DNA from: an uncultured bacterium
GTDB taxonomy: Bacteria > CAIJMQ01
Length of the DNA stretch: 21,454 bases
NCBI GenBank assembly: GCA_964573245.1
Contig: CAZNJA010000021.1
Coordinates: forward strand, 1 to 21,454
Direction of reading: 5' to 3'
The notes beneath the pieces were generated by a model, which did no database searches, was not told the origin of the DNA, and was given only the letters and a program-made list of their open reading frames with translations. The translations under genes and the position numbers were made by a program. Shown here piece by piece: positions 493 through 21,454 of the stretch; positions within the stretch are counted from its first letter, which is position 1, and each line of letters starts with the position of its first letter.

Positions 493-574
493 CCCGTTAG
501 AAGCCTGCCTCGACAGCAAGACGGGTAAGTCGCCAGAGATAACTGCCACACCTTTGATGTGGACTTCTAATGGG
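493..574. mobile_element. Family A miniature palindromic element with a nested 22-nt hairpin (504-525)
   Basis: Termini ACCCGTTAGAAG (492-503) and CTTCTAATGGGT (564-575) pair 11/12. Removing 504-525 leaves a core matching the panC copy at 50/60 positions. Confidence 0.85.
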
Positions 575-575
575 T

Positions 576-2021
576 CTAATTTTTATGAAACCGTCTTGAT
601 CTATTGTTCCCTGTCCGTTCGCCACTGCTTCCATGGCGGGTTGACGAGGATGAGCGATTGCGTTTATGGGAGAATCGGCTGGGGCGTGAACCGCCTGAAT
701 GAGAACTCCCTGAGCGTGAACCACTTGGGTGTGAACCACCTGTGCGCGAACCACCTGAATGAGGACTCCCTGAGCGTGAACCACTTGGGTGCGAACCACC
801 TGCGCGTGAAGTGCCCGAATGAGAACGGTTGCGAGAATGTGACGACCCCTTATATCTGCCTGGAGAAAATTTATGAGCGCGGGCAGGAGGAAGGTCAGCC
901 GGAAGCGGTGAAATCGGAAGACTTTTTCTTATCAGACGTTCAATACGGTACAAATCACGCCGCTGCTGGGAAGTTGCGAATGAAATAGCATGTCCGTTAG
1001 CGCCGGCGCGGGCCGTTCGTCCGATTCGGTGCACATAATCTTCAGAGTTATCCGGAAGGTCATAATTAATTACCAGTTCAATGCCGATTACATCAATACC
1101 TCTTGAAGCAACATCGGTGGCTACTAATACGCGATATTTCCCTGATTTAAATCCTTGAAGCGCCTCACGGCGTTGGAAAAGGGAGCGGTTGGAATGAATC
1201 TCTGCGGCTCTATGTCCAATACTGCAAAGCACCTTCGTAAGTTTGCTTGCTCCGTGTTTTGTCCTTGTAAAAATAAGTGTCGGGCCGGAATATTGTTTGA
1301 GAAGTTTTTCCAATAGACGGGATTTCAAATCTTTTGAAATAATAAAAATTTCCTGTGTTACCTGTTTAACTGTTGTCCCGGTAGGAGCAACCTCTATTCT
1401 AATCGGAACTTTCATGTATTTCGTAGCCATATTCATAATTGCGTGAGGTATTGTCGCGGAGAAAAGCATTGTTTGTCGCTCACGCGGAAGCGCGTTGAAG
1501 ATTTGTCTAATTTGGGGCTCAAATCCCATGTCTAACATACGGTCTGCTTCATCAAGTACGACAATAAGAACATTTGCAAGCCGCACTGTTCTTTGCTCTA
1601 AATGGTCATTTAAACGACCCGGAGTAGCTATAATAACATGTGGATTTCTGTTAAGCGCTTGTATCTGGGGGCGTATTGACGTACCTCCGATAATAACAGC
1701 CGTTTTTAATCTCATATCTGCGCCGATTTGATGCAACGCTTCGTCAACTTGTATGGCAAGTTCCCGCGTGGGAACCACCACCAAGCCGCGCCCTTTTACT
1801 TGACATAGCTTTTGAAGCATCGGGATGCCAAACGCAATTGTCTTACCGGTGCCCGTCTGGGCAATACCTACTACATCCTTGCCCTGTATTGCTACCGGCA
1901 TGGCTTGACTTTGAATCGGGGTAGGTTCTTTATAGTTTAATTTTTCCAGTGTTCTTAAAAAACTAGGCATGATGCCCAGCCCAGAAAAAGCCGTATTTTG
2001 ATGTTGATGGTTTTGACTCAT
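576..2021 (-). CDS. DEAD-box ATP-dependent RNA helicase (RhlE/CshA-like) with a Ser/Gly/Arg-rich tail
   Basis: Motifs PTPIQ, AQTGTGKT, PTRELA, TPGRL, DEAD, SAT, ATDVASRGID, HRIGRTAR. Confidence 0.95.
   Translation of the reverse strand: MSQNHQHQNTAFSGLGIMPSFLRTLEKLNYKEPTPIQSQAMPVAIQGKDVVGIAQTGTGKTIAFGIPMLQKLCQVKGRGLVVVPTRELAIQVDEALHQIGADMRLKTAVIIGGTSIRPQIQALNRNPHVIIATPGRLNDHLEQRTVRLANVLIVVLDEADRMLDMGFEPQIRQIFNALPRERQTMLFSATIPHAIMNMATKYMKVPIRIEVAPTGTTVKQVTQEIFIISKDLKSRLLEKLLKQYSGPTLIFTRTKHGASKLTKVLCSIGHRAAEIHSNRSLFQRREALQGFKSGKYRVLVATDVASRGIDVIGIELVINYDLPDNSEDYVHRIGRTARAGANGHAISFATSQQRRDLYRIERLIRKSLPISPLPADLPPARAHKFSPGRYKGSSHSRNRSHSGTSRAGGSHPSGSRSGSPHSGGSRTGGSHPSGSRSGSSHSGGSRPSRFSHKRNRSSSSTRHGSSGERTGNNRSRRFHKN
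684..810 (-). repeat. Coding tandem repeat, about 2 x 60 nt built from 15-nt subunits, in the helicase tail
   Basis: 684-743 closely matches 744-803. Encodes SRAGGSHPSGSRSGSPHSGG / SRTGGSHPSGSRSGSSHSGG. Confidence 0.9.
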
Positions 2022-2144
2022 AAATTTTTATATACGAAGATTTTATAATTTAAGCCGGAAATAATCTTCTCGTCGGACACCTCAATATGTAGGTTTTCTA
2101 TCAATAGCATAATTACACCTTGAAAATATAAAAATTAACTGCAA

Positions 2145-2173
2145 AGAATAGCACGCAAAGCAATAAGTAGCAA
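2145..2173 (-). promoter_or_regulatory. Putative sigma70 promoter of the helicase gene
   Basis: TTGCTA (2173-2168), 17-nt spacer, TATTCT (2150-2145) preceded by TGn. Implies a 5' UTR of about 115 nt. Confidence 0.5.
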
Positions 2174-2190
2174 GTAAGTGTAAGAATTTT

Positions 2191-2219
2191 CTCCCACATC
2201 AAAATCTTTGGCGCGGAAG
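2191..2219. repeat. Degenerate family B 29-nt hairpin element downstream of ssrA
   Basis: 21/29 identical to the reverse complement of the mnmA insert, sharing the CAAAATCTTTGG core. Folds on the minus strand with G-U pairs. Confidence 0.6.
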
Positions 2220-2257
2220 TTTACAAAATATATCAAAGGCAGGAGGACAACTCAATA

Positions 2258-2613
2258 TGGTGGAGGTGACGGGAATCGAACCCGTGTCCATAGAAAAGCT
2301 CCTAAAAGGCAGCTACACGCTTGTTCCTTATTTTAGTTTAATTTCTCTCCTCTCCCAAGGACAAGATAAGAAAGAAACGAGTCTGGTTTTTTGTCCTTCT
2401 TGCCCTTCAGACCGAGAACAAGAAGTAAGCCCGTTTTCCTGCATCCTTAATGCCCAACAGGCAAAAGCGTATAAGGATGTCGACCGCTTTGTTAAGCGGC
2501 GAAAGCTACAGCTTCTTCAGCTTTTGTATTTTGTCAGGTTTTAACGAGGCCTCCTGACAACCTCGGCGTGCTCCTTTTAGCCGCTTGCTCCATGTCGATG
2601 CCTTGGCACCCCC
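2258..2613 (-). ncRNA. ssrA: tmRNA (transfer-messenger RNA)
   Basis: 5' GGGGGTG pairs with 3' CACCTCC-ACCA, including the G3-U alanine identity pair. T-loop GGTTCGATTCC. Tag frame at 2521-2492 encodes AEEAVAFAA*. Adjacent to smpB. Confidence 0.95.
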
Positions 2614-2620
2614 ATTAATA

Positions 2621-2770
2621 AAATAAAAAATTAAACATCAAATATCAAAAATACATATTAAAATTTAAAATGTAAAAAAAGAACAACCCAAACACTTGTT
2701 TTTTGTTTAGTTATTAAAAATTTTACATTTTGCATTGTCATTTTACTTTTTACCTTTTAATTTTTGATTT
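2621..2770. repeat. AT-rich imperfect inverted repeat with about 7-nt periodicity
   Basis: A-rich arm 2621-2672 aligns with the reverse complement of T-rich arm 2719-2770; (T/C)AAAA-type units recur. Confidence 0.6.
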
Positions 2771-2777
2771 ATTTTTC

Positions 2778-3227
2778 CTATCTTCCCTTTACCGCTTTTC
2801 TTATTTCCTTTTCCACATCGTGCTTTTTTAAGTCGGCGCGTTTATCAAATAGTTTTTTGGCTTTTGCAAGCCCGAGTTCTACTTTCGCCCAGCCCCTACT
2901 TGCGAAATAAATTTTTAACGGAATCAGCGCCAGCCCTTTTAAAGCAAACTTTCCCGCAAGCTTCTTAATTTCGTTTTTATGCAAAAGAAGTTTTCTTTTT
3001 CTGGTCGGAGCAGTGTTAAAAATGCTCCCCTCTTCGTAGGGGGTAATATGCATATTGTAAAGAAAAACCTCTCCATCTTCAACTTTTGCGAAAGCATCAA
3101 CGATACTTACATTCCCTTCACGCAAAGATTTAACCTCTGTTCCTTTAAGCACAAGCCCGGCTTCAAATTTGTCCGTAATATGATATTCGTGAAAAGCCCG
3201 CTTGTTTTGGATTACTTTTCCGGCCAT
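2778..3227 (-). CDS. smpB: SsrA-binding protein SmpB
   Basis: NKRAFHEY, EAGLVLKGTEVKSLR, RKRKLLLHK, KVELGLAKAKKLFDKR. ATG 3227 preferred over the upstream TTG in the ORF track. Confidence 0.97.
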   Translation of the reverse strand: MAGKVIQNKRAFHEYHITDKFEAGLVLKGTEVKSLREGNVSIVDAFAKVEDGEVFLYNMHITPYEEGSIFNTAPTRKRKLLLHKNEIKKLAGKFALKGLALIPLKIYFASRGWAKVELGLAKAKKLFDKRADLKKHDVEKEIRKAVKGR

Positions 3228-3233
3228 GCGGGG

Positions 3234-3261
3234 ATTGTACCCTAATAAAACCAAAAATCAA
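3234..3261 (-). promoter_or_regulatory. Putative promoter giving a leaderless smpB mRNA
   Basis: TTGATT (3261-3256), 16-nt spacer, TACAAT (3239-3234), then 6 nt to the ATG. No Shine-Dalgarno sequence. Confidence 0.5.
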
Positions 3262-3324
3262 ATCTTAAATAGCAAAGACAGAAACCAAAAACATAAAAAT
3301 ATATTTACATTTTTAATATGTATA

Positions 3325-3395
3325 TTCCCTCTGCAATTTTAAAAATTGCGAGGACTTAGTCCCTGAAATTGCAAAGCAATTTCTAGGGGTAATTT
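3325..3395 (-). repeat. Family C double-hairpin element embedded in an AT-rich array
   Basis: Hairpins at 3328-3353 and 3361-3388. Minus-strand ends AAATTACCCCTAGAAATT and CAGAGGGAA match the ends of the 18021-18098 element. Confidence 0.7.
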
Positions 3396-3425
3396 TTTAT
3401 TTTTGATATTTGATATTAAGCGAAG

Positions 3426-4046
3426 CTACGCTTCCTCAAACACTTCTGCCTCGAATATATAAATATTTGTGTCTTTATCTTTCCATGCATCTGGCGGCAG
3501 GCCTGCCTTGTGAGAGCATAAACAGGAGAGAAACTCTTCCTTTTTCCAGCCGGTTTCTTCGGCGACCTGTGGAAGAAATACGCCCTGATTAAACCCTTTT
3601 CGAACGATTACACCATGTATGCCCAGTTCAATTTCCTTAACATTTTTTATCTTTCTCGGTTGGGAAAGAACGGAAATCTCTATTTTTATATCCTTTAATT
3701 CGCTTTCCGTGACAGGTGGAAACCGCGGGTCCTGTGTGCTTGAGGCAATCGCCATATCCCGCACAGTTTGATAAAGCGGCTCACTGCTTACTATATGCCC
3801 AATACAGCCGCGCAACGACTCCTCATCATGTGGTTTGCTTTTGGCCCCCAAACCAGAGCGAGCCCCGCCTTGACGCGAGGCAGGTCGGTTCGGGGTAAAA
3901 TTTCTCAAAGTTACAAAAGCGCCGTAAGATTTTAATAGTTCAGGGTCGTCCTCGCTAAATTTAGTAATTTTTCTTTCTTTGATATATGTCTTGAGCGTCT
4001 GGCGAGCAATTTCTAATAATTTCTTCTTTTGTTCTTTGTTAAGCAT
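3426..4046 (-). CDS. amrA: AmmeMemoRadiSam system protein A (AMMECR1 domain) with an in-frame palindromic insert
   Basis: GAFVTL...LRGCIG, DPRFPPV, IEISVLS, GVFLPQVA, KAGL. ATG 4046 overlaps the end of the upstream gene. Confidence 0.9.
   Translation of the reverse strand: MLNKEQKKKLLEIARQTLKTYIKERKITKFSEDDPELLKSYGAFVTLRNFTPNRPASRQGGARSGLGAKSKPHDEESLRGCIGHIVSSEPLYQTVRDMAIASSTQDPRFPPVTESELKDIKIEISVLSQPRKIKNVKEIELGIHGVIVRKGFNQGVFLPQVAEETGWKKEEFLSCLCSHKAGLPPDAWKDKDTNIYIFEAEVFEEA
3846..3895. mobile_element. In-frame palindromic element with a nested hairpin (3864-3884)
   Basis: Coding-strand arms CCCCGAACC and GGTTTGGGG; inner CCTGCCT...AGGCGGG. Encodes about TPNRPASRQGGARSGLGA between VTLRNF and the LRGCIG region. 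Confidence 0.8.
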
Positions 4047-4536
4047 TTTTATTAAACAGTTGAACAATTGGTTTATGTGTGAAAAAGACGAAAAACATTA
4101 TATAAATTACAAGATCCCAAATTCCCATAAAGCTTATTGTAAATCTACCCATCAAAAACATTGTTATAAACCTACTAAGAATGACCAGAATAATTAGAGA
4201 TAATAACATCTTTCTCGCCCACGATTTCCTCAGAAACAGGGATATTCCAGATACTATAAAAGATGCCGAGAGGAGGAAGGAGAAAGCAAATAAATACAGA
4301 ACCGTTGCTTTATTTTGTATACCCCAAATTTCTTGCACTGCATCTAAATAGTAACTAAATGACTTTACAATTTCTGTAAAAATACTTGATCCCTCAACAT
4401 GAAGAATGAAGGCAATAACAATACTTGGCGCAAAAATAGCAAATACTTTTATCAAACCGTGTAAACATATACAAACTGCAATAAATCGTAACAAAAATAA
4501 AGGTTGTTCCAACTTTTGTTTAATCTTTAAAAGCAT
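4039..4536 (-). CDS. Hypothetical integral membrane protein, about 4 TM segments
   Basis: Hydrophobic ORF with an LFLRKSWAR loop, co-oriented between panC and amrA. ATG 4536 is the likely start; the ORF track start at 4578 is TTG. Confidence 0.7.
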   Translation of the reverse strand: MLLKIKQKLEQPLFLLRFIAVCICLHGLIKVFAIFAPSIVIAFILHVEGSSIFTEIVKSFSYYLDAVQEIWGIQNKATVLYLFAFSFLLSASFIVSGISLFLRKSWARKMLLSLIILVILSRFITMFLMGRFTISFMGIWDLVIYIMFFVFFTHKPIVQLFNKNA

Positions 4537-4545
4537 TTTCTTTTC

Positions 4546-4568
4546 CCGATAACCGAACACCGATAACC
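4546..4568. repeat. Heptamer tandem repeat CCGATAA-CCGAACA-CCGATAA-CC
   Basis: Directly visible just downstream of the panC stop. Confidence 0.6.
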
Positions 4569-4570
4569 AT

Positions 4571-5521
4571 TTACCCAATTATCATATTATCTATCAACCG
4601 CACTTTACCTATTCGGACCGCAAGTAATATTACCACTTCCCCGGTTATTTTTTTAACGGGTCGCAATGTTTTGGGTTCTCTTATTTCGATGTAATCGATA
4701 TTTAACCCTGCATCGTCCCGCCATTGTATCAGTGGCGGGTCTGGTGCAGGGCTTTCTTTCTTTATCATTGTTTGCATTCTTTTCTTAACTTTTTCGGCAT
4801 CGGTTGAGCCGTTTTTTATTAATTTCTTTGCTTCAATTAGTGAACGATAAAGAATTGTTGCGGATTTACACTCTTCTCTGCTTAAGTATGCATTTCTTGA
4901 ACTTTGGGCGAGGCCGTCTTTTGCCCTTACGGTTGGTAAGGTTTTTATTTTTGTATCTATGTTAAGGTCTTTGACCATTTTTTTAATTATGACTGCCTGC
5001 TGATAGTCCTTCTGTCCGAAATAACTCTTGTCCGGCTGGACGATGTTGAATAGTTTCAGCACGACAGTTGTAACGCCTCTAAAATGTCCGGGGCGAATTT
5101 TTCCTTCAAGAATACTGGATAATCCTGTTTCCTCCACATAGGTTGAGAAATTGTCGGGATTCACCCCGTTAGAAGTAAGTCGCCCAGGGCGACTGCCACG
5201 CCTTTGGTGTGGACTTTTAACGGGGTACATGTCTTCAACTGATGGGGCAAAGATTATATCAACACCTTCTTTTTTTGCGATGGTGTTATCGTGAGAGAAA
5301 TTTCTCGGATATTTTTTGTAGTCCTCTTTTGGCCCAAACTGCGTAGGGTTGACGAATATGCTTAATACGACGATGTCGTTTTCTTTTCGCGCTTTTTTTA
5401 TAAGCGAAACGTGTCCGTCGTGGAGCGCGCCCATTGTCGGGACAAAACCTATTGTTTTGCCTTTCTTTTTAAGGGTTTTTATTGTTGATGTTAATTTGTG
5501 TGGGGATTTAATTACTTTCAT
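4571..5521 (-). CDS. panC: Pantoate--beta-alanine ligase with two in-frame palindromic inserts
   Basis: GFVPTMGALHDGH, SIFVNPTQF, RPGHFRGVTTVV, FGQKDYQQ, DGLAQSSRN, RLIDN. Confidence 0.97.
   Translation of the reverse strand: MKVIKSPHKLTSTIKTLKKKGKTIGFVPTMGALHDGHVSLIKKARKENDIVVLSIFVNPTQFGPKEDYKKYPRNFSHDNTIAKKEGVDIIFAPSVEDMYPVKSPHQRRGSRPGRLTSNGVNPDNFSTYVEETGLSSILEGKIRPGHFRGVTTVVLKLFNIVQPDKSYFGQKDYQQAVIIKKMVKDLNIDTKIKTLPTVRAKDGLAQSSRNAYLSREECKSATILYRSLIEAKKLIKNGSTDAEKVKKRMQTMIKKESPAPDPPLIQWRDDAGLNIDYIEIREPKTLRPVKKITGEVVILLAVRIGKVRLIDNMIIG
4706..4751. mobile_element. In-frame palindromic element with a nested hairpin (4717-4739) in the panC C-terminal domain
   Basis: Outer arms CCCTGCATC and GGTGCAGGG; inner CCCGCCATTG-TAT-CAGTGGCGGG; flanked by TTAA at 4702-4705. 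Confidence 0.8.
5164..5225. mobile_element. Family A element, in frame in panC
   Basis: Termini ACCCCGTTAGAAGT and ACTTTTAACGGGGT pair 13/14. Two internal hairpins. Adds 22 aa between MYP and DNFSTYV. Confidence 0.9.
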
Positions 5522-5533
5522 GTTCTTTTAATA

Positions 5534-5608
5534 TGTCATTGCGAACAAAGTGAAAGGAGTGTGGCAATCTCACAAGATTGCTTCGTCGTTACACTCCTCG
5601 CAATGACA
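5534..5608. repeat. REP/RPE-like intergenic palindrome of the TGTCATTGCGA...TCGCAATGACA type
   Basis: Perfect 11-bp terminal inverted repeats (5534-5544 and 5598-5608) and an internal GCAATCT/AGATTGC stem. Confidence 0.85.
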
Positions 5609-5617
5609 GTATATTGT

Positions 5618-5676
5618 AATCTGTGTAATCCCCGCCTGCTGCGAAGCGGGCAGGTCTTTTTAAAATCAGTGTAATC
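5618..5676. repeat. AATC(T/A)GTGTAATC direct repeats enclosing a family D hairpin (5631-5654)
   Basis: 5618-5630 and 5664-5676 match 12/13, with CCCGCCTGCT-GCGA-AGCGGGCAGG between them. Confidence 0.7.
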
Positions 5677-6948: not shown

Positions 6949-6958
6949 GGCCGTATGT

Positions 6959-9900
6959 TTATCTTCCCAAATCCCTCAAAGTTTTGCGGGCTAACTGAAA
7001 GTCAGGATTAATCTTTAAAATTTTCTTCAATTCAAGTTTCGCATCTTGGTATCTCCCCGCATTAATGTATGCCACAGCCAAGCCGTATCGCGCTTCTACC
7101 CATTGAGGGTTTAGTTTTATTGCCATGTTCAATTCGTTTATAGCTTTATCGAGCATGCCGGTCTGAAAATACATTTTTGCAAGATTATAGTGGAAATTAG
7201 GATAGGCGGGACCTATCTTTATTGCTGTTTGTAAGAGGTCTATTGCCTCCTCAACTTTTCCCGTCTTGTAGTAAATATCCGCCAAATTGTAATAGGGAGC
7301 TAAATAAGTAGGTTCTATTTCTATTGCTTTTTGAAATGCCTCGATAGCAGCATTGTCATCTAAACCTTGGTATCTATAGACAACACCCAAATTGTTATGG
7401 GCCATTGCCAAATCAGGCTCTATTGCCAATGCTTGTTTTATTATGGTTATCGCCTGTTCATATTTCCCCAGTTCAAGATAAGCGCTTCCCATTTGGGAAA
7501 GGGCTTGCACGCATTGAGGGTCTATCTCCAGTATTTCCTTATAAATTTTTATCGCTTCTTCGTGTCTGCCTTCTTTTTGATAGAAACCTCCCTCGCCGAG
7601 ATATCTTTGTTTGCCTGCATCGAAAAGAAATTGAATGCTTTTGTCTTCAGGGTTGACGTTCAATGCCTTGCGATATTGCCGAAGCATATCTCCTATCCGA
7701 GACTCTTGAGTAAAAATTTGGCCTAAAATCTCATGTTCTTTCGATTCAAAATACGTCTTAAGTTTTTCCTTAATGTTATCAGTATCCTTACCTGTATTGA
7801 CCAAAAGAGGAAAGGCGCTCTGTCTGAATTCTTCCAGTTCTCTCATATTCAAGGGGATGGTAGCTACTCCCTTTTGCCCTTCCCATGCAAATTGGATGGG
7901 AGTATTATTATCGGTATTTATCGGTGAGTCTTTCGTGAAATCTACAGTAGCTTCTCCCATAATAAAACGGCTCAAAAAGGCGAAAGGGTCATCTAAGTGC
8001 AATACTTCTAAATCCTCTTTAATTGTTTTGTCCTCCAATTTTTTAGTAAATAAATCAAAATCAATCTCTAATTTTTCATTTGCTCCTAACATTAGGCTAT
8101 AACCTGTAGGGAGCCATAGGCTTGTATGGGGAAAAACCGATTGGAAGGTTTTTAGTATGATTTTATAGTCTCTCGGGACTAAAGAATGCAAAGGAAGCCA
8201 CTGACAGATTATCCCCCCCTCATTTAAGATTTTTTCACATGATTCGTAAAACTCTTTAGTATAAAGCATCCAACTGTCACTGCTCGCCGGATGAGTAGCG
8301 TCACAAATTATCACATCGTAACGGTTTTTAGTGGTCAGAAGATAATTTCGGGCATCTTCAATTATCAAGTTAACCTTTGGGTCGCTTAAAACATTCTGGT
8401 TTTCTTCAAGGAAATAGTTACTTGCCTTAACCATTTCAGGGGAAATTTCTACAGCATCTATTTGCTCAAGGTCGTGCGTGGCCACTGCTCCGGTGGTGAT
8501 ACCGCCCCCGAAACATATTACTAATGCCTTTTGCGGATTTTTGTGCAACAAGTTAGGCAAATGTCCCAACATATGGAAAGTTTGTAAAGAAGCATAATCC
8601 GTGGGCACTTCCTCAATATTGTTAAGCTTCAATATTTTTATACTATCGTTTTTTTCTACTACTGTTACAGTGGCATAAGCGCCCTCTTTATAATAAAGCA
8701 ACTTTTCGCCAGGTTGTAAGGAATAGAAATTAATATTATGATAAATACTGGCAATAACCGCCAAAAAAATTAAAACGATAGATAATATGCCGTATTTACT
8801 CTTTCGAGATGCGGATGGGTGGGCGATAATTATTATTCCTCCAAGGGTAATGTTAATAAAAGCAATTAAAAAAATGCTCTTTTGCAATCCTATCATTGGA
8901 ATAAATATAAAACCGGCAATAAAAGAGCCGACTATGGCGCCAACGCTGTCCAAGCAACCAAGATTTCCTATGTATCGCCCAACGTTTTTTAAACTGCGAG
9001 CATAAATTCTACCGACCAAAGGAAACGTTGTTCCCATCAAAAATGAAGGAACAAGCATTACAAGAAAAGAATATATATAACTGAAAAAAATATAGTTGCC
9101 AACTGCTTGTTGCCTTGGAGCAAATATAAAATAAAATCTAAACCAGTCAAAAGAAAGCAAAGCCCCAAATAACAACAAAATTAATATCGCAGAAAGTCCA
9201 ATGCATATTTCTATAAAGCCCAGCAACGTTAATAAATTTTTCTTCTTATCCACAATCTTTGCCATCCAGAAGCTGCCCAAGGATAACCCGCTTATAAAAC
9301 TTGTTACAATAATTGAAAAATTGTATGTGGTATTATCTAAAAACAGAACAAGTATCCTCATCCAGAGCACCTCATAAGCCAAAGAAACGAACCCCTCTAT
9401 TGCGAAAACCCACAACACCAAATAAAGTATATGTTTAGGATATGGCGGGGTAGTCTCTAAAGAGAGCGTTTCGACCTCGGCAAGTGTCTCATTTTCTGCA
9501 TCTTTTCCGGTATCTACACTTTTGCTTACTGCCAAACTGATTGCCCCAATTAAAATATTTATAATCGCCGCAAGATATAGAGTTTGCCTAACTCCTATGG
9601 TTTTGATCAGAAGAAATCCCGCCAGAAGACAACCAATTACCGCCCCCAAATTGTTTACAGAGTAAAGACTGCCTATGTTCCATCCCAATTCTTTTAGCTT
9701 CTTGACAAAGAATTTACTAAGAACAGGCAGAGTGCCCCCCATAAGAGTAGTGGGAATAAGCAGCAAAAGGAATGCCAAGAGGAATCTAACGAGACTGAAA
9801 AGGTAGAAGCTGGCGTAGAGATATCTGTGAAGTAGAAGATAAAGCTCTGTTAAGCCGGAAAGAATAAACGGGAATAAAAGCGCAAATACGCCGATACTTA

Positions 9901-10165
9901 TTTGAAGGCAGGCAAACAGTTTGACCGGGTTTTTATGTCTGTCGGCGTATCTGCCAAAATATAAGCTGCCCAGCGCTAAGCCTGCCATAAACGCGCTTAG
10001 AACCGTGCTTGCCGCAAAAACAGTTATCCCAAATACCAGCCCGAACATGCGTACCCAGATTACTTGGTAAATTAATGCGCTGGCGCCCGAAAAAAAGAAG
10101 AGGATAAATAAGATTAATCGTGTGGTGTTATCAGTGGAGAGAATACTTTTCGCAGACTTCTTCAT
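6959..10165 (-). CDS. Fused multi-TM / spermidine-synthase-like SAM-binding protein with C-terminal TPR repeats
   Basis: FFFSGASALIYQVIW, many TM segments, LVICFGGGIT, VEISPEM, EDARNYL, YDVIICD, YTKEFY, QWLP, then TPR-like repeats. Confidence 0.88.
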   Translation of the reverse strand: MKKSAKSILSTDNTTRLILFILFFFSGASALIYQVIWVRMFGLVFGITVFAASTVLSAFMAGLALGSLYFGRYADRHKNPVKLFACLQISIGVFALLFPFILSGLTELYLLLHRYLYASFYLFSLVRFLLAFLLLLIPTTLMGGTLPVLSKFFVKKLKELGWNIGSLYSVNNLGAVIGCLLAGFLLIKTIGVRQTLYLAAIINILIGAISLAVSKSVDTGKDAENETLAEVETLSLETTPPYPKHILYLVLWVFAIEGFVSLAYEVLWMRILVLFLDNTTYNFSIIVTSFISGLSLGSFWMAKIVDKKKNLLTLLGFIEICIGLSAILILLLFGALLSFDWFRFYFIFAPRQQAVGNYIFFSYIYSFLVMLVPSFLMGTTFPLVGRIYARSLKNVGRYIGNLGCLDSVGAIVGSFIAGFIFIPMIGLQKSIFLIAFINITLGGIIIIAHPSASRKSKYGILSIVLIFLAVIASIYHNINFYSLQPGEKLLYYKEGAYATVTVVEKNDSIKILKLNNIEEVPTDYASLQTFHMLGHLPNLLHKNPQKALVICFGGGITTGAVATHDLEQIDAVEISPEMVKASNYFLEENQNVLSDPKVNLIIEDARNYLLTTKNRYDVIICDATHPASSDSWMLYTKEFYESCEKILNEGGIICQWLPLHSLVPRDYKIILKTFQSVFPHTSLWLPTGYSLMLGANEKLEIDFDLFTKKLEDKTIKEDLEVLHLDDPFAFLSRFIMGEATVDFTKDSPINTDNNTPIQFAWEGQKGVATIPLNMRELEEFRQSAFPLLVNTGKDTDNIKEKLKTYFESKEHEILGQIFTQESRIGDMLRQYRKALNVNPEDKSIQFLFDAGKQRYLGEGGFYQKEGRHEEAIKIYKEILEIDPQCVQALSQMGSAYLELGKYEQAITIIKQALAIEPDLAMAHNNLGVVYRYQGLDDNAAIEAFQKAIEIEPTYLAPYYNLADIYYKTGKVEEAIDLLQTAIKIGPAYPNFHYNLAKMYFQTGMLDKAINELNMAIKLNPQWVEARYGLAVAYINAGRYQDAKLELKKILKINPDFQLARKTLRDLGR

Positions 10166-10278
10166 AAGTAAATGAATTTTTCTTTACTTTTGTGCTACTG
10201 TTATGATTTTTCAACAGAGCTACTACAACATACTATTTTTGCTCACCATTTCTCGAGAGTGAGGACGTTTTGATAATT

Positions 10279-10584
10279 CTATTCAAAACTATTAGTAGTC
10301 TCTTGCGGCACAGCTGTTTCTTCTTGGGTTATGATTTTTTCAAGAATAGATGACGGTTTTACCGTTTTTGTGGATAAGGACAGATACAGCGAAGTAATTA
10401 AAAACAAAACAGCAAGCCCTGCGGTAATTTTTGCCATCGGCCCTCCCGAAGAAGGCGTAAACATACCGCTGCTACCGCCTCCAAAGATGTTTGCAAGCCC
10501 TGCGCCTTTACCTGCTTGGAGCAGAACTATGGCTATCAGCCCCAAAGACGTAACGATATGAATTATTGTTATAAATGTCATCAT
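10279..10584 (-). CDS. secG: Preprotein translocase subunit SecG
   Basis: Two TM helices around VLLQAGKGAGLANIFGGG, plus KITA. Confidence 0.92.
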   Translation of the reverse strand: MMTFITIIHIVTSLGLIAIVLLQAGKGAGLANIFGGGSSGMFTPSSGGPMAKITAGLAVLFLITSLYLSLSTKTVKPSSILEKIITQEETAVPQETTNSFE

Positions 10585-11809: not shown

Positions 11810-12933
<1,124 letters not shown>

Positions 12934-16674: not shown

Positions 16675-16676
16675 AA

Positions 16677-17765
16677 ATGAACCCCGTTAGAAAACCTACG
16701 AGGAGCTTGTTTGGGTTTTTCAAAGTAAGGAGCAAAAAAATGTCTAAGATGTGTAATGCAGGGGGAGGAAAATTTTCTAACGGGGTGAATAACATTGTTC
16801 GAAAAATAAATGATTTAAAAAAGAAAAGAAATGCTGTAATACTGGTTCATAATTATCAATTGCCAGAGGTTCAGAACATCGCGGACTTCTTAGGTGATTC
16901 TTTAGGGTTGAGCCAGAAAGCAGCGGAAACAGATGCGGAAGTAATCGTGTTCTGCGGCGTGCATTTTATGGCGGAGACGGCATCAATCCTCTGTCCCGAT
17001 AAGATTGTGCTCATACCCGAACTAGCTGCCGGCTGCCCGATGGCGAATATGATTGATGCCGAAGAGGTGCGTAATTTAAAGAAAAAACATCCCGATGCCA
17101 CTGTTGTTGCTTATGTAAACACAACCGCCGAGGTGAAAGCGGAGAGTGATGTCTGCTGTACTTCGGCAAATGCCGTTAAAATAGTTGATTCTTTGCCTGC
17201 TAAAAAAATCATTTTTATTCCTGATAAATATTTAGGACAATATGCTGCAAGTCAGATTAATCCCGTTAGAAATAAATCGCCAGAGGCGATTGCCTCCGAT
17301 GGGTATCGGAGAATTTCTAACGGGACAAGCAAAGAAATAATATTCTTTGAAGGGTACTGCCCTATTCATGTCAAGATTTTGTCGGAAGATATCTTAAGGG
17401 CAAAAAAAGAACATCCTTCTGCCGAAATACTTGTTCATCCCGAATGCACTCCGGATGTAATTGCTATGGCAGACAAAGTGTTTTCAACAACCGGTATGCT
17501 TAACTATGTTAAAAAGACCAAAAGCGAAGAAATAATCATCGGGACTGAAGTAGGAATCGTTTACAGGTTGCAAAAGGAGAATCCGGATAAAAGTTTTTAT
17601 CCCGCTTTCAAACATGCAATTTGCGAAGATATGAAGAAGAACAATTTAGAAAAAGTGCTCTGGTCATTGGAAGAAATGAAATATGAAATAAAAGTGGATG
17701 AACAAATAAGGTGGAAAGCAAAAAAGGCAATTGAGAAAATGTTAGAGTATAGTAGAACAGATTAA
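16677..17765 (+). CDS. nadA: Quinolinate synthase NadA with two in-frame palindromic inserts; start uncertain (16677, 16740 or 16785)
   Basis: HNYQ, GDS, FCGVHFMAE, AGCPMA, YVNT, CCTSANA, PDKYLG, CPIH, HPEC, GTE, CEDMK. Confidence 0.95.
   Translation: MNPVRKPTRSLFGFFKVRSKKMSKMCNAGGGKFSNGVNNIVRKINDLKKKRNAVILVHNYQLPEVQNIADFLGDSLGLSQKAAETDAEVIVFCGVHFMAETASILCPDKIVLIPELAAGCPMANMIDAEEVRNLKKKHPDATVVAYVNTTAEVKAESDVCCTSANAVKIVDSLPAKKIIFIPDKYLGQYAASQINPVRNKSPEAIASDGYRRISNGTSKEIIFFEGYCPIHVKILSEDILRAKKEHPSAEILVHPECTPDVIAMADKVFSTTGMLNYVKKTKSEEIIIGTEVGIVYRLQKENPDKSFYPAFKHAICEDMKKNNLEKVLWSLEEMKYEIKVDEQIRWKAKKAIEKMLEYSRTD
16682..16785. mobile_element. Family A element (104 nt) inserted at nadA codon 2 with a perfect TGAA duplication
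   Basis: Perfect 14-bp inverted repeat ACCCCGTTAGAAAA / TTTTCTAACGGGGT. TGAA at 16678-16681 and 16786-16789. Confidence 0.9.
17261..17325. mobile_element. Family A element, in frame inside nadA
   Basis: Perfect 13-bp inverted repeat TCCCGTTAGAAAT / ATTTCTAACGGGA, plus two perfect 7-bp internal hairpins. Adds about 23 aa. Confidence 0.9.
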
Positions 17766-17787
17766 ACTACAAGAAAGGAGAAATAAA

Positions 17788-18009
17788 ATGAGGGAAAAAG
17801 TGGAAAAAGCCTTAAGTAAAATACGCCCGGCATTACAGGCAGACGGAGGGGATGTAGAGTTGGTTGAAGTTACCGAAGACGGAATTGTCAAGGTCAAACT
17901 TACAGGCGCCTGCGGAGACTGCCCTATGGCTCAAATGACTTTAAAAGGCGGTATCGAAAGAGTTTTAAAAGAAGAGGTTCCGAATATAAAGAGAGTGGAA
18001 TCGGTATAA
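17788..18009 (+). CDS. NifU C-terminal / Nfu-type Fe-S carrier protein
   Basis: IRPALQADGGDVELV, LTGACGDCP, TLKGGIE; AAGGAG ribosome-binding site. Confidence 0.93.
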   Translation: MREKVEKALSKIRPALQADGGDVELVEVTEDGIVKVKLTGACGDCPMAQMTLKGGIERVLKEEVPNIKRVESV

Positions 18010-18020
18010 TAAAAAGTCAA

Positions 18021-18098
18021 AAATCACCCCGAGAAATTCAAAGAATTTCCGGCCCCTAGAAATGCAGAGCATTCCACGGGGAAAGATTCCAGAGGGAA
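18021..18098 (+). repeat. Family C element containing a 29-nt CCCC...GGGG hairpin (18053-18081)
   Basis: 18021-18073 matches 21401-21453 at 52/53 nt. Contains a GAAATTC-AAA-GAATTTC hairpin. Confidence 0.9.
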
Positions 18099-18118
18099 AG
18101 CAAAAAGGCAAAACTAAA

Positions 18119-20293
18119 GTGAAAAAACAGCTAGTATTTATTTTTACAGCTCTTTTGTTTTTAGCGATTTGTTGCACATTGACTTACTGCGAACCCGATG
18201 TAACTGATTTGCACAACCAAAGCGTGAAAATCGATAAGGCGCCGAACATATATTTTTCGGAAACCGCTTTTGATTTTGGGTTCGTATATCAGGGAGAGAA
18301 AGTAGAGCATATATTTAAATTCAAGAATATCGGAGACACAGGGCTGACAATAGATAAGGTAAGAGCATCATGCGGCTGTACTGCTGCCGTCATTTCCGAC
18401 ACGTATATCCCGCCCAGTGGCGAGGGTGAAATAAAGGCGACTTTCAATACCGCCGGGTATATAGGGCGGCAAAGCCAAAGCATTTATGTCCAAACAAATG
18501 ACCCCCTGAATCCCACGATAGTACTCCAAGTTAAGGGAGAGGTTAAAATAGAAATCAAAGTAAGCCCCCATTCCATACAATTCGGAGATATCCCCCCGCA
18601 TACTTCTGCTGTCAGCCGAATTGAAATAATCCAAAAAGGAGAGCAAGCGCTTATAATCGACAAAATAAAAACACACAGCAATTACATAAAAATAGACAAG
18701 GTAGAAAAAAGAATACATCAAGGTAAAAATATTTATTCTTTGGACGTTTCCTTAACACCCAAAACACCCGCAGGGCGTTTTTTTGACAGACTTGAAGTCT
18801 ATACTAATTTGGAAAGGAAACCCTTAATTTTAATAGGAGCACAGGGAAGGATTTTAGGAGATATAATGCTTTCTCCGGAACGAATAATTTTCAAAACAGT
18901 GCCCGGCGAGAAAAAAGTTTCTTCCGTTACTATTTCTTCAGAAGACGATGACTTTGAAATTCGAAAAGTGGAAAGCACTATAAAATATCTTTCTGTGGAA
19001 CTCATTCCTATTGAAACATTTAAAAAATACAGGATTGATCTTAATATAGATACAAAAATCCCCGTGGGTTTAATCGACGGCGAGATAATAGTGTACACAA
19101 ATCGTCCGCGAGAAACCGAGTTAAGGATACCGGTTTTGGGACAGATAATAAAACCCGCCTTGTCGGATACCTTCACGGGTCTACAGGGTTCCGCCTCAAC
19201 CCAAACGCAGACCCGCTCGAACGAAATCCAAATAGGTTATTTCTTTGAAAGAGGTTGTTTGGATTGCGAACACGTGCATAGTCTTTTACAATCCTTACAA
19301 GAAGAATTTCCCTCTATCACGATTGAGGAATATGATATAGGCGTAAGAGAAAACATGGGATTAAATGAGGCGCTATGCGAAATTTATGGCATTCCCGAAG
19401 AGAAAAGACTGATAACGCCCACAATTTTCGTAGGCAAAGATTATTTGATAGGAAAAGGGATCACAAGACAAAAAATCATCGAACTGACCAATAAATATCC
19501 GAAAGGCGCTTCTTTGCCGCTGGAGGAAGCAGCCAAAAGCGCAGATGTTGCGGAAAGCAGCATAGCGGATAGGTTCCAGCATTTCGGTATTTTCGCCATA
19601 ATAGCGGCGGGACTGTTGGACGGAGTCAATCCTTGCGCTTTTGCCACGATAATATTTTTCATTTCATATCTTACCATCTTAAAAAGAAAGGGGCGGGAAA
19701 TTGTCATTGTGGGAATCGCTTTCACATCCGCTATCTTTATCACATATTTTTTAATTGGCATTGGGTTGCTCGAGTTTTTGAAATATCTTACCTTTCTTAA
19801 ACATTTCACGAAATTTTTATACGTGCTCGTTGCGGCACTTACTTTTCTTCTCGGCATTTTAAGTTTTTGGGATTTTCTTAAAAGCAGGAAAGGGAAGGCA
19901 ACCGAATCCGTATTGCAACTTCCCCGCTTTTTGAAAAATAAAATACATTCCACAATTAAGGAACAAGCGAATTTAAGAAGATATGTTCTTGCGGCTTTTA
20001 TAACGGGGTTCATTGTCTCCATATTGGAAATGGCTTGCACCGGACAGGTTTATTTGCCCACGATTGTTTACGCGACTGGAATCAGCGATTTGAGATTTGC
20101 CGCTTATATATCTCTTTTACTTTATAACATCATGTTTATTACTCCGCTTATCGTGATTTTTATACTGGCGTATTTTGGAGCGACAGCTATCGATTTAAGC
20201 GATACTTTGGGCAAAAATATGGCGCTGATAAAGCTTTTGCTGTCTATTCTATTCTTTATTTTCACCGCGTTTTTGGTAATGTTGTTGATATGA
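18119..20293 (+). CDS. DUF1573/Ig-like + thioredoxin-like CxxC + CcdA/DsbD-like membrane domain fusion protein
   Basis: Signal-like N-terminus from GTG 18119, SCGCT, GCLDC, LDGVNPCAF, LEMACTGQVYLP and several TM segments. Confidence 0.8.
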   Translation: MKKQLVFIFTALLFLAICCTLTYCEPDVTDLHNQSVKIDKAPNIYFSETAFDFGFVYQGEKVEHIFKFKNIGDTGLTIDKVRASCGCTAAVISDTYIPPSGEGEIKATFNTAGYIGRQSQSIYVQTNDPLNPTIVLQVKGEVKIEIKVSPHSIQFGDIPPHTSAVSRIEIIQKGEQALIIDKIKTHSNYIKIDKVEKRIHQGKNIYSLDVSLTPKTPAGRFFDRLEVYTNLERKPLILIGAQGRILGDIMLSPERIIFKTVPGEKKVSSVTISSEDDDFEIRKVESTIKYLSVELIPIETFKKYRIDLNIDTKIPVGLIDGEIIVYTNRPRETELRIPVLGQIIKPALSDTFTGLQGSASTQTQTRSNEIQIGYFFERGCLDCEHVHSLLQSLQEEFPSITIEEYDIGVRENMGLNEALCEIYGIPEEKRLITPTIFVGKDYLIGKGITRQKIIELTNKYPKGASLPLEEAAKSADVAESSIADRFQHFGIFAIIAAGLLDGVNPCAFATIIFFISYLTILKRKGREIVIVGIAFTSAIFITYFLIGIGLLEFLKYLTFLKHFTKFLYVLVAALTFLLGILSFWDFLKSRKGKATESVLQLPRFLKNKIHSTIKEQANLRRYVLAAFITGFIVSILEMACTGQVYLPTIVYATGISDLRFAAYISLLLYNIMFITPLIVIFILAYFGATAIDLSDTLGKNMALIKLLLSILFFIFTAFLVMLLI

Positions 20294-20309
20294 GCGGGAG
20301 AAAACAAAA

Positions 20310-21401
20310 TTGTTTAAAAAAAAAGTTCTGGTTGCAATGAGCGGCGGCGTAGACTCTTCGGTAGCGGCGTTTTTACTAAAAGAAGAGAAAAAATACGATG
20401 TCATTGGTGCAAATTTTAAGTTATTTGATGCTCAAACGAAACCTTATTACAAAAATCAAAACACCAAAGACGCTCAAGCTGTCTGCGAAAAAATAGGGAT
20501 TCCGTTTTACTCTTTTGATTATAGCAGGGAATTCAAAGAGAAAGTTATCAATTATTTTTGCGCAGAGTACTCGAAAGGAAAGACCCCCAACCCATGCGTT
20601 ATGTGCAACGAAAAAATAAAATTTGGCGCACTCTTTAGCAAAGCAAAATCATTGGGCGCGGATTATATCGCAACGGGACATTATGCCAGAAAAGCGCATA
20701 ATAAAAAAACAAAAAGGTATGTCCTAAAAAAGAGTAAAGATAAAAACAAAGACCAATCCTACTTTTTATTCTTTCTGACGCAGGGACAACTTAAATCTAC
20801 TCTTTTCCCGCTTGGGGGTTACACCAAGGAGGAAGTGCGCCAAATCGCGAAAAAGATCGGTTTGAAAACTCACAATAAACCAGAAAGCCAAGATGTTTGC
20901 TTTATCTATGGCCGAGACTACCATGAGTTTTTGGAAACTCATCTAAAAGGTTTTTATAAACCCGGCCCGATTACCCGTAGCAAAGGCGAAGTCGTAGGCA
21001 AACATAAAGGCATCCCGTTTTATACAATAGGGCAAAGAAAAGGCTTGGGACCCCATAAAAAGGCGATGTATGTTACTGGCATTGATAGCAAAAAGAATGT
21101 TATAGTAATCGGAGAAGAAAAAGAACTTTATCAGGACACTTTATTCGCGGAAAAGGTTACATGGACAGGGATAAGCAAATTAAAAGAGCCGCTGAAAGTA
21201 AAAGCCAAAACGAGATACGGGAGCAAAGAAAGCGAAGCGGTTATTTCTCCTACGGATAAAGGGATGGTTAACCCACACACCAAAGATTTTGGTGTGTGGG
21301 TTAAAGTAAAATTTGCCAAACCGCAAAGAGCAATTACTCCCGGACAAGCGGTAGTGTTTTATAATAAAGACATTGTTGTCGGCGGAGGGTGGATAAAATA
21401 A
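20310..21401 (+). CDS. mnmA: tRNA-specific 2-thiouridylase MnmA with an 11-aa palindromic insert
   Basis: AMSGGVDSS, TPNPCVMCN, ATGHYA, KDQSYFL, ESQDVCF, TIGQRKGL, AITPGQ. TTG start with GGGAG upstream. Confidence 0.97.
   Translation: MFKKKVLVAMSGGVDSSVAAFLLKEEKKYDVIGANFKLFDAQTKPYYKNQNTKDAQAVCEKIGIPFYSFDYSREFKEKVINYFCAEYSKGKTPNPCVMCNEKIKFGALFSKAKSLGADYIATGHYARKAHNKKTKRYVLKKSKDKNKDQSYFLFFLTQGQLKSTLFPLGGYTKEEVRQIAKKIGLKTHNKPESQDVCFIYGRDYHEFLETHLKGFYKPGPITRSKGEVVGKHKGIPFYTIGQRKGLGPHKKAMYVTGIDSKKNVIVIGEEKELYQDTLFAEKVTWTGISKLKEPLKVKAKTRYGSKESEAVISPTDKGMVNPHTKDFGVWVKVKFAKPQRAITPGQAVVFYNKDIVVGGGWIK
21272..21300. mobile_element. Family B 29-nt perfect hairpin with TTAA duplication, in frame in mnmA
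   Basis: TTAA-CCCACACACCAAA-GAT-TTTGGTGTGTGGG-TTAA. Confidence 0.92.
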
Positions 21402-21454
21402 AATTACCCCGAGAAATTCAAAGAATTTCCGGCCCCTAGAAATGCAGAGCATTT
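21401..21454 (+). repeat. Family C element, second near-identical copy, truncated by the window end
   Basis: 52/53 identity to 18021-18073. Confidence 0.9.

Follow-up and report, generated by a model that had tools for sequence, protein, structure and literature searches.

MITEs that sit in frame inside bacterial genes are already known, and our literature search on them returned the cases of RPE, QMITE, and ERIC. Coxiella QMITE1, ERIC, pneumococcal BOX, and Anabaena MITEs are not known outside a single genus or family each, and for several of them the parent insertion sequence has been identified. IS1380 elements carry CC or CCC termini and generate a duplication of 4–5 bp (ISfinder tables). 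PMC10969869 describes Rickettsia palindromic elements (RPEs) as ~150 bp long and confined to Rickettsia. According to PMC10813416, piggyBac repeats start with CCC and duplicate TTAA, with the rare variants TAAA, TCAA, and CTAA, and IS1380 forms the prokaryotic outgroup for piggyBac.

We analyzed a stretch of 21,454 nt from the genome of an uncultured bacterium (the stretch is called the window, its genome G000, and other G-numbers denote the genomes compared with it). An earlier note had described at least 14 short palindromic elements here, six of them within coding sequences. All six were recovered at the positions given there as perfect or near-perfect palindromes, though the overall recount came to ~13 (Table 1), and a palindrome at 2536–2563 proved to be part of the tmRNA gene, the sole match to Rfam in the window at the gathering threshold. 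The note's broader view, that several families of non-autonomous mobile elements are present, was supported. Like RPEs as presented in PMC10969869, they are short palindromes inserted repeatedly and in frame into unrelated housekeeping genes, and would add a peptide where the fold is judged able to accommodate it. They differ from RPEs in measuring 28–174 nt, with a sharp terminal repeat of 13–16 nt and a 4-bp duplication (no RPE sequence was compared), and in their host, which belongs to a free-living candidate phylum unrelated to Rickettsia, with the same ends present in many other phyla. QMITE1, ERIC, BOX, and Anabaena MITEs resemble them in being non-autonomous, in having terminal inverted repeats, and in fusing at times in frame with host reading frames (PMC10969869 and PMC5896051), but here one identical repeat reaches across phyla, and the search for a parent was negative.

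Table 1. Palindromic elements of the window, with strand where assigned
Position	Strand	Description
492..575	.	Family-A MITE, 84 nt, ends A..T not C..G, CTAA/CTAA flanks
3328..3392	.	Family-B two-hairpin element, CCCCTAGAAAT-type ends, intergenic between smpB and the AMMECR1 gene
3846..3895	-	Palindrome inserted in frame in AMMECR1 (amrA); outer stem CCCCRAACC, nested CCCGCC-type hairpin
4706..4751	-	panC insert 2, in-frame palindrome; outer stem CCCTGCA..TGCAGGG around hairpin CCCGCCATTGTATCAGTGGCGGG
5164..5225	-	panC insert 1, family-A MITE, in frame; 62 nt + 4-nt flank = 66 nt = 22 aa
5534..5608	.	Palindromic element between genes, TGTCATTGCGA..TCGCAATGACA
5630..5655	.	GC-rich hairpin, CCCGCCTGC..GCGGGCAGG type, then T run
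11810..11912	.	Family-A MITE, ~100-nt subfamily, 3' end of gap, flanks TTCA/TAAA
16682..16785	+	Family-A MITE, 104 nt, nadA start, perfect TGAA/TGAA duplication
17261..17325	+	Family-A MITE inside nadA, in frame; 65 nt + 4 = 69 nt = 23 aa
18020..18080	.	Family-B element upstream of and overlapping the DUF1573 gene start
21272..21300	+	Family-C hairpin MITE in mnmA, CCCACACACCAAA..TTTGGTGTGTGGG, 29 nt, TTAA/TTAA
21400..21454	.	Family-B element past the mnmA stop codon, cut by the window end

The right duplication copy of the element at 492–575 holds the stop codon of a DEAD-box helicase gene (576–2021, minus strand), and the family-C insert together with its duplication adds 33 nt, or 11 aa, to mnmA in frame. 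The nadA element at 16682–16785 is in frame, as the earlier note had it, yet lies directly after the ancestral ATGAA start, outside the gene body; read in the nadA frame it stays open, and it contains its own AAGGAG-N7-ATG. The region around the first family-B element (3322–3417) has ~83–86% identity in G001 and G002, and the family-B copies at 18020–18080 and 21400–21453 are 98% identical. The central hairpin of panC insert 2 recurs within other elements. In four metagenome runs, a great many contigs from other organisms also contain a piece (5575–5609) of the intergenic element that starts at 5534.

Family A, the main family, is bounded at both ends by a terminal repeat of 13–16 nt, CCCCGTTAGARAT, followed by AGG in the fuller form, and its true borders lie one C/G beyond those first drawn (CCCC..GGGG). 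The interior consists of one or two GC-rich subterminal hairpins, to which longer forms add AT-rich filler. Exact 9-mers occurred 58 and 53 times against ~3.4 expected per strand, palindromic CCC..GGG pairs numbered 198 compared with 53 for the GGG..CCC control, and the four genomes of the genus hold 33, 15, 29, and 16 exact-end pairs. A 4-bp target-site duplication, first read from the flanks of 57 raw G000 copies (45 kept after filtering), is mostly TNNA and more broadly YNNR, with a spectrum of TTTA, TGAA, TAAA, TCAA, and TTAA. Flanks were identical in 14 of the 45 filtered copies, where permutation predicts 3.8 and reached at most 11 in 10,000 trials, and matched TNNA in 69–73% of G000 copies against a genome background of 8.6%. 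Because the duplication is intact in only those 14, many G000 copies are old, a point that we set against a transposase origin. The duplication also accounts for an earlier observation that element plus 4 nt is a multiple of 3: the 4 nt are the duplicated target. Across nine copies of 71 nt, 99% of the 14-bp outer helix is paired. Positions 11–13 co-vary between the two arms of the repeat, a feature that we likewise counted against a transposase origin, as a model of transposase binding alone does not require it. Other G000 families (CCCCCACACCAAAG.., CCCCGCNCC.., and CCCCTAGAAAT..) likewise have C-run ends, with a TNNA duplication in several copies, and therefore probably use the same enzyme as family A or a related one.

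The earlier note had tied the families to this lineage, an emphasis that did not survive comparison with other genomes, since the main family is not peculiar to it. The same repeat with perfect 4-bp duplications was found in Omnitrophota, Planctomycetota, Patescibacteria, Thermodesulfobacteriota, and others. Identical 4-nt flanks bordered 69 of 122 long-form copies from 119 genome loci (9.3 by permutation) and 87 of 123 short-form copies from 120 metagenome loci; the 13-nt repeat is exact in these 122 genome-contig and 123 metagenome copies by design of the search pattern. Viral contigs yielded 0 matches to the long-form pattern. In G000 the main family is represented by one local population; the MITE group to which it belongs has the identical terminal repeat in many phyla. 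Among 151 genomes of the phylum of G031, 24 bore elements, with G031 and G121 the richest.

We then compared the interrupted genes with their orthologs, and for PanC, NadA, MnmA, and AmrA we found the empty sites that the earlier note had proposed to look for, in close relatives and in outgroups. Across 14 PanC sequences aligned from 20 fetched ORFs, insert 1 (~22 aa) was present only in G000 and G002 and insert 2 (14–15 aa) only in G000; the G002 element occupies the same site as insert 1, with its two internal hairpins in reversed order. The internal NadA insert has an orthologous copy in G001 and a shortened remnant in G002, and its site is empty in seven relatives (G003, G004, and five more distant), while the N-terminal NadA insert occurs in G000 only. 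AMMECR1 has 16 extra aa in G000 that are absent in G001 and G004, and the MnmA insert is absent in all four relatives covering its site. At gap, the stop codon and last two codons do come from the element, as the earlier note claimed, and an orthologous copy in G002 gives an ending of APLEI followed by the stop.

In an AlphaFold model of PanC, pLDDT fell below 50 only at residues 102–128 and 260–271, which correspond to the two inserts, and both were placed in coil between secondary-structure elements. A loop position alone would also be expected if the segments were ordinary lineage-specific protein loops, or assembly artefacts, with no mobile DNA involved. That explanation is barely credible, given that the same 13-nt ends occur at at least 45 places in G000, coding and non-coding, with target duplications, that outgroups are without the segments, and that independent assemblies carry the inserts. 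For the elements of nadA, amrA, and gap, contigs from runs X1 and X3 agreed with the window without a single difference; among the contig pieces listed, none spanned the panC or mnmA inserts. With orthologous inserts in separately assembled genomes as well as in run contigs, the inserts are real DNA and no artefact of assembly. No empty-site allele, or joint precisely skipping an element, appeared in the run contigs, which drop rare variants and so are silent on excision.

Reading frame separates genic from other copies. In G000, length was a multiple of three for 19/19 copies inside an open frame, compared with 12/26 of the others (Fisher p = 6e-5), and all 19 host ORFs matched Pfam families, further hosts including RibF, TruB, KdsB, LipB, ProB, GpsA, UvrC, and Mfd. 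Metagenome copies behaved similarly, with 21/22 in genes being in frame against 46/101 others; 16 of these 22 host ORFs matched Pfam families, in genes such as RtcB, PheS, and UvrB. These data support the view that only frame-preserving, stop-free copies persist within genes. Of the earlier proposal that selection keeps frame-preserving inserts in tolerant loops, the frame part stands, and the part on loops agrees with the predicted structure of PanC, the one protein modeled. To judge from the frame bias, the inserts would be translated. The strong hairpin potential of the elements could instead suggest that they are removed before protein is made, by intron-like or other processing, such that no new peptides arise. 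We consider this highly improbable: inserts cut out of the RNA would have no reason to be multiples of three or free of stops, so the frame bias counts against it, and no Rfam family other than tmRNA was found in the window.

To identify a candidate mover, Pfam transposase profiles (PF13701, PF01609, PF13843, PF01797, PF13546, and PF00665) were searched against G000–G004 and MITE-rich genomes of other phyla. None of the 20 ORFs of the window matched a transposase family, in agreement with the earlier note. PF13701, PF01609, PF13843, PF13546, and PF00665 were all without matches in G000 and G001, and PF13701 and PF13843 were without matches throughout G000–G004, though the PF13843 profile matched no control genome either, so its negative carries no weight. 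No transposase gene matched in these searches had element-type ends. Over the 151 genomes, four transposase families showed no enrichment with the elements, and no co-occurring transposase emerged among IS1380, DDE_Tnp_1, IS701, rve, and Y1.

The features of the ends nevertheless invite comparison with IS1380 and piggyBac-type transposons, from which the elements might derive: family A starts with CCCC and family B with CCCCTAGAAAT, the 4-bp duplications are TNNA-rich and include TTAA, and the pattern of insert presence and absence (the internal NadA insert, PanC insert 1, and the 3' end of gap) is homoplasious with respect to the species tree, as the precise excision of such transposons might produce. 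The target is, however, wider than a strict TTAA, and the search for a cognate transposase, whether inside element-bearing genomes or co-occurring with them, was negative. PF13701 exceeded the cut-off in 1 of 24 element-bearing genomes (2 with a weak match; ~1.4 expected by chance) against 8 of 127 others, and the repeat of the IS1380 copy in G033, CCATGAGGTTTGA, differs from that of the elements. We therefore regard this derivation as unlikely.

GC-rich hairpin interiors kept by compensatory change, high copy number, modular doublets, and small hairpins nested repeatedly inside other elements without any duplication are reminiscent of REP/REPIN sequences, for which the mover would be a RAYT or IS200-type HUH (Y1) transposase acting on single-stranded hairpins. 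Y1_Tnp-like genes are indeed present in G000 (one degenerate 436-aa protein), G002 (four), and G003 (two). They are absent from G001, G031, and G121, however, and near-universal in the 151 genomes irrespective of elements (20/24 element-bearing, 102/127 others). The elements here also have true terminal repeats and variable 4-bp direct duplications, which HUH transposition is not known to make, leaving a REP/REPIN origin very unlikely. Integron attC sites were considered separately and rejected: the likeness to core sites is loose, the copies lie scattered and form no arrays, and duplications are present.

The earlier note had suggested looking for a transposase or nuclease ORF bounded by the same termini, and our search for one was negative. 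Terminal repeats in G000, G031, G100, and G121 all fell in pairs ~30–270 nt apart, with no autonomous element among them, and in G031 every end that seemed solo proved to be paired, ~120 nt off, with a second end carrying 1–3 mismatches. Within ~1.5 Mb of DNA flanking 239 loci, long pairs of ends were only chance pairs or neighboring MITEs. The long repeats of G000 turned out to be ordinary genes, tuf among them. A parent insertion sequence, with a long pair of ends and an ORF, was thus found in none of these four genomes or 239 loci, but as most are draft metagenome assemblies, its absence is unproven.

We conclude, with a probability of roughly 85%, that the inserts are MITEs left by a transposase of the cut-and-paste type acting in trans. 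Integration would duplicate a 4-bp target, with TNNA preferred. Insertion could occur anywhere, with purifying selection presumably clearing most genic copies. Survivors would be those whose length plus duplication is divisible by three and whose terminal repeat is read in one of two stop-free frames, as P-V-R-N...I-S-N-G-V or A-P-L-E-I...F-L-T-G, and would sit in tolerant loops, leader peptides, and gene ends. The AT-rich forms of 100–125 nt are full of stops and so would survive mainly between genes. A more speculative extension, which we offer tentatively and regard as doubtful, is that the CCCCGTTAGARAT elements form a pan-bacterial MITE superfamily with no known parent and with piggyBac-like end chemistry (C-run ends and a 4-bp duplication). 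Their mover would be a transposase class not yet recognised, as none of the families tested co-occurs, and precise loss with re-insertion at the same site might let them insert peptides reversibly into core enzymes of uncultured bacteria with small genomes.

In the open-access literature searched (Creative Commons PubMed Central and bioRxiv), these ends were undescribed among the matches listed, though supplementary files may list such repeats. Of the matches listed for MITEs with Omnitrophota, Patescibacteria, or Ratteibacteria, none contained "miniature inverted-repeat", and those listed for MITEs with IS1380 or piggyBac held nothing on these ends. What is new here is an unusually widespread group with no known transposase, and it offers a second, much broader natural case of the phenomenon seen with RPEs. 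Core enzymes by the dozen (PanC, NadA, MnmA, RibF, TruB, PheS, UvrB, RtcB, and others) would carry predicted peptides of 11–40 aa derived from mobile DNA, and the inserts provide a ready-made map of insertion-tolerant sites. A candidate phylum has the 13-nt repeat in the same unchanged form as Omnitrophota, Planctomycetota, Patescibacteria, and Thermodesulfobacteriota, which implies that a transposase is shared among many bacteria and moves horizontally; finding it would lengthen the list of prokaryotic transposases. Gene calls and protein families of metagenome-assembled genomes are inflated and fragmented by these elements, and recognition of their motif permits masking.

Palindromic elements lie within several genes of the window, and each one claimed in the earlier note was recovered at its position. 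Ortholog alignments of PanC, NadA, AMMECR1, and MnmA showed the inserts as clean extra protein segments at sites empty in relatives, as had been proposed. The PanC alignment used 14 sequences out of 20 fetched ORFs; in it, a 22-aa segment was present only in the window's own genome, G000, and its relative G002, and a 14-15-aa segment only in G000. For NadA (11 sequences), a 23-aa internal segment (NadA-2) was found in G000 and G001, with a shortened remnant in G002; it was absent from relatives G003 and G004 and from five more distant genomes, and G011 had a few extra residues there. A 36-aa N-terminal NadA extension, immediately 3ʹ of the ancestral ATGAA, was exclusive to G000. AMMECR1 of G000 carried 16 more residues than that of G001 and G004, and MnmA 11 more, seen in none of the four relatives covering the site; TTAA/TTAA duplications flank the mnmA hairpin. 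The end of gap is indeed rewritten, with the last codons and stop of a GAPDH ending ..YMFTP* falling inside the element; G002 has the orthologous element and its GAPDH ends ..APLEI*. Conversely, at sites empty in G000, the HPPK region holds two inserts common to G001 and G002, and PGK holds one more. The set of genic inserts differs species by species. In the element at the start of nadA, AAGGAG is followed after seven bases by an ATG that is in frame with nadA. A related G001 copy has a similar motif, and the element may provide an alternative ribosome-binding site and start codon.

The possibility of assembly artifacts was not upheld, as orthologous inserts occur in separately assembled genomes. 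The window stretch was present in fourteen DNA runs labelled salt-marsh metagenome. Contigs from metagenome runs X1 and X3 covered the nadA-start, internal nadA, amrA, and gap elements with 0 differences, which is weak independent support because the runs may include the source sample.

G000 comprises 1.46 Mb in 110 contigs at 38% GC, with the window as contig C21. Pfam assignments across the window agreed with the gene names in the earlier note: RsgA, DEAD-box helicase, SmpB, AMMECR1, PanC, M48 peptidase, HPPK, an MFS-spermidine synthase-TPR fusion, SecG, PGK, GAPDH, two DUF1573 proteins, Rrf2, a PALP enzyme, a ThiI-like protein, NadA, and MnmA. The 20 window ORFs gave no match to any transposase family. 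An Rfam search of the window located a tmRNA gene, and a 95-aa ORF was rejected as spurious because it overlaps this gene. The 1068-aa fusion gene sits between HPPK and secG, and its 3.3-kb region looks like a gain in G000, since the syntenic regions of G001, G002, and G004 hold only a short spacer. The DEAD-box helicase gene contains at least eight tandem 15-nt units in its 3ʹ part, which would give the protein a repetitive tail at the C-terminus. A 73-aa protein, which looks NifU-like by its GACGDCP motif, is encoded in the conserved, supposedly non-coding region downstream of nadA. Intergenic arrays of 7-8-nt units (GATACTAG or TATCNAG-like) occupy 27 places in G000, often as inverted pairs, and have no relation to the MITEs.

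Coordinates of features in the window and in related sequences
Feature	Genome	Location
Tandem 15-nt units, DEAD-box helicase gene	G000	window 669-833
Spurious 95-aa ORF	G000	window 2257-2544
tmRNA	G000	window 2258-2613
Intergenic element TGTCATTGCGA..TCGCAATGACA	G000	window 5534-5608
High-depth stretch	G000	window 5575-5609
Fusion-gene region	G000	window 6950-10300
gap 3ʹ element	G000	window 11810-11912
AAGGAG-ATG, nadA-start MITE	G000	window 16730-16752
Related copy with similar motif	G001	C11:57789-57889
73-aa protein after nadA	G000	window 17788-18009
HPPK-region inserts	G002	locus L035 2939-3001 and 3207-3268
HPPK-region inserts (minus-strand coordinates)	G001	locus L034 12695-12742 and 12948-13009
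7-8-nt-unit arrays, examples	G000	C13:14532, C15:17245, C36:4060
MITEs in prepilin-like genes	G000	C4:23506-23628, C17:24156-24203
Membrane protein with weak Y1 match	G000	C12:23859-25169

The genome-wide scan of G000 proposed in the earlier note returned 57 CCCGTTAGA..TCTAACGGG pairs (within 200 nt, at most one mismatch per end), and the exact end 9-mers occurred 58 and 53 times versus ~3.4 expected. By flank inspection, the palindrome reaches one C/G further (CCCC..GGGG) and the terminal repeat goes on into RAT, often RATAGG. Outside it, the adjoining 4 nt on either side form direct repeats that vary by copy (TTTA, TCAA, TTGA, TGAA, TTCA, TAAA, CTAA). Removing 12 weak matches left 45 bona fide copies, 14 of which had identical 4-nt flanks, compared with 3.8 by permutation (maximum 11 in 10,000); TNNA made up 69-73% of flanks against a background of 8.6%. 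These repeats are a target-site duplication, which accounts for the earlier rule that an element and 4 nt together make a multiple of three. Other families, with ends CCCCCACACCAAAG.. and CCCCGCNCC.., had duplications TAAA, TTTA, and TGAA. Palindromic CCC..GGG pairs numbered 198 in G000 versus 53 for the GGG..CCC control, and all short repeats together amount to 32.6 kb, ~2.2% of the genome. The intergenic element TGTCATTGCGA..TCGCAATGACA is a second cross-organism repeat: summed contig depth over part of it was 224-1434 versus ~5 around it in four metagenome runs, and many other organisms therefore carry that stretch.

Tabulating length modulo three in G000 gave multiples of three for 19/19 embedded copies (host frame staying open for 20 or more codons in both directions) versus 12/26 others (Fisher p = 6e-5), the 19 including probable non-genes (C3:26780, C13:15598, C53:8881, C75:3774, and a minus-strand frame over the nadA-start element). 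All 19 host ORFs tested, 16 of them from 26 raw embedded copies plus three others, matched Pfam: RibF, TruB, two DUF1559 pilin-like proteins, a thymidylate-synthase-like protein, KdsB, a chorismate-binding enzyme, a GT1 glycosyltransferase, LipB, Ogg, an M48 peptidase, UvrC, ProB, a NuoN/Mrp subunit, GpsA, Mfd, a radical-SAM protein, UDP-glucose dehydrogenase, and a PfkB kinase. Of the three frames of the terminal repeat, just one contains a stop (TAG inward, TAA outward). Translated copies start P-V-R-[NDSK] and finish I-S-N-G-[VAT] in one frame, and start [AT]-P-L-E-I and finish [FS]-L-T-G in the other. When PanC was modelled with AlphaFold2 (11-row alignment; mean pLDDT 82), confidence was low only at residues 102-128 and 260-271, the two inserts, which are predicted to lie in coil that separates secondary-structure elements. 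In two DUF1559 prepilin-like genes, a MITE directly precedes the GFTLIELL cleavage/methylation motif, its TTTA duplication falling within the G-F-T codons, and flanks GGNTTTAC recur at several other copies; such placement may reflect a target preference, or tolerance of inserts in a leader peptide that is cleaved off.

Short forms (45-72 nt) consist of the terminal repeat and two hairpins, and 100-125-nt forms have a single hairpin by one end, their interior being AT-rich and highly variable. Across nine 71-nt copies from four species, standard pairing held in 94% of 270 pair cells, compared with 36-49% when slid. Five pairs showed two-sided changes: terminal-repeat positions 11-13 co-varied with 59-61, and one hairpin pair changed from G-C to A-U in three of the nine. 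Both the hairpins and the ability of the ends to pair are therefore maintained, the constraint being on either DNA or RNA. Small hairpins such as CCCGCCATTGTATCAGTGGCGGG also recur nested within other elements, without duplications.

Six window proteins (1,811 columns) gave the fully supported tree ((G000,G003),(G004,(G001,G002))), unrooted and for the window region only. Three inserts were homoplasious on it: NadA-2, the gap 3ʹ element (G000 and G002; absent from G001, G003, and G004), and PanC-1 (G000 and G002; absent from G001 and G004). At the PanC-1 site, flanks match between G000 and G002 but internal hairpin order is opposite, and the alignment showed no footprint at the empty PanC site of G001. 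Repeated hits at the same sites, precise loss, or in-place inversion may each explain this history.

The earlier reading of a mobile element largely stood, but not that of a lineage-specific main family, as the same ends occur in many phyla. Within the window's phylum, represented by only nine species in the genome collection, exact-end pairs were confined to the four genomes of the genus (33, 15, 29, and 16), with 0 in five others. Elements in loci labelled Candidatus Ratteibacteria match a genus-mate's elements exactly. A long-form scan (CCCCGTTAGARAT-N75-105-ATYTCTAACGGGG, one genome per species) matched at least 119 stretches, those listed including Omnitrophota, Planctomycetota, many Patescibacteria lineages, Thermodesulfobacteriota/Deltaproteobacteria, Elusimicrobia, Nitrospirae, Clostridia, Stahlbacteria, and others. 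Among the matches listed, interiors were unrelated between lineages, 4-nt flanks were identical in 69/122 versus 9.3 by permutation (foremost TTTA, TGAA, TAAA, TTCA, and TCAA; also CGCG, CGTG, TGGG, and CTTG), and only 2/122 lay within long open frames. Short forms in metagenomes (gap 24-54) matched at least 120 stretches; among those listed, flanks were identical in 87/123, 21/22 embedded copies (frame open for at least 40 codons each side) were in frame versus 46/101 others, and 16/22 host frames matched Pfam. These hosts include RtcB, glycogen debranching enzyme, a PIF1-like helicase, molybdopterin oxidoreductase, PrmC, a NuoL/M-type subunit, UvrB, DNA polymerase III deltaʹ, PheS, and MoeA. 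No viral contigs matched the long-form pattern. In an even sample of 151 genomes from the phylum of the element-bearing genome G031 (one locus of which is labelled Omnitrophota), 24 had at least one exact pair, versus 0 for the reversed-pattern control.

The C-run ends and 4-bp TNNA duplication resemble piggyBac and IS1380, as described in PMC10813416. They also resemble the end and duplication values that ISfinder gives for IS1380. The transposase did not bear out membership of that group. PF13701 (IS1380), PF01609, PF13546, and PF00665 had no matches in G000 or G001. PF13843 also matched nothing there, a result without weight because it matched no control genome either. PF01797 (Y1) had four hits in G002, two in G003, and in G000 a degenerate domain, a weak match (32.7 bits) at the N-terminus of a predicted membrane protein of 436 aa that has a 446-aa counterpart in G003. 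Within the 151-genome sample, element-bearing genomes were not enriched over the others for PF13701 (any hit, 2/24, one over cut-off, versus 13/127), PF01609 (6/24 versus 39/127), PF13546 (1/24 versus 8/127), or PF01797 (20/24 versus 102/127). No parent element was found in G031 or in the long-contig genomes G100 and G121, where every end lay in a MITE-sized pair or near a degenerate partner. The IS1380 and IS701 copies that turned up have different ends. The genomes searched gave no pointer to a parent, but most of them are drafts, where insertion sequences are poorly assembled, and its absence is not proven.

Collectively, the observation of palindromic in-frame elements is confirmed and the earlier interpretation is largely right; current activity, mobilization in trans, and translation of the inserts stand as inferences. 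Among the papers listed by literature searches, none was seen to describe these ends, or MITEs from the phyla concerned. According to a 2024 review (PMC10969869), in-frame MITEs are documented, Rickettsia palindromic elements (RPEs) are the extreme case, and further MITEs include QMITE1, ERIC, BOX, and Anabaena MITEs. In proteins, the present elements act similarly to RPEs. Their DNA structure, with terminal repeats and target duplications, is that of classical MITEs. In-frame MITEs as such being already known, this family stands out by its missing transposase and its phylogenetic breadth.
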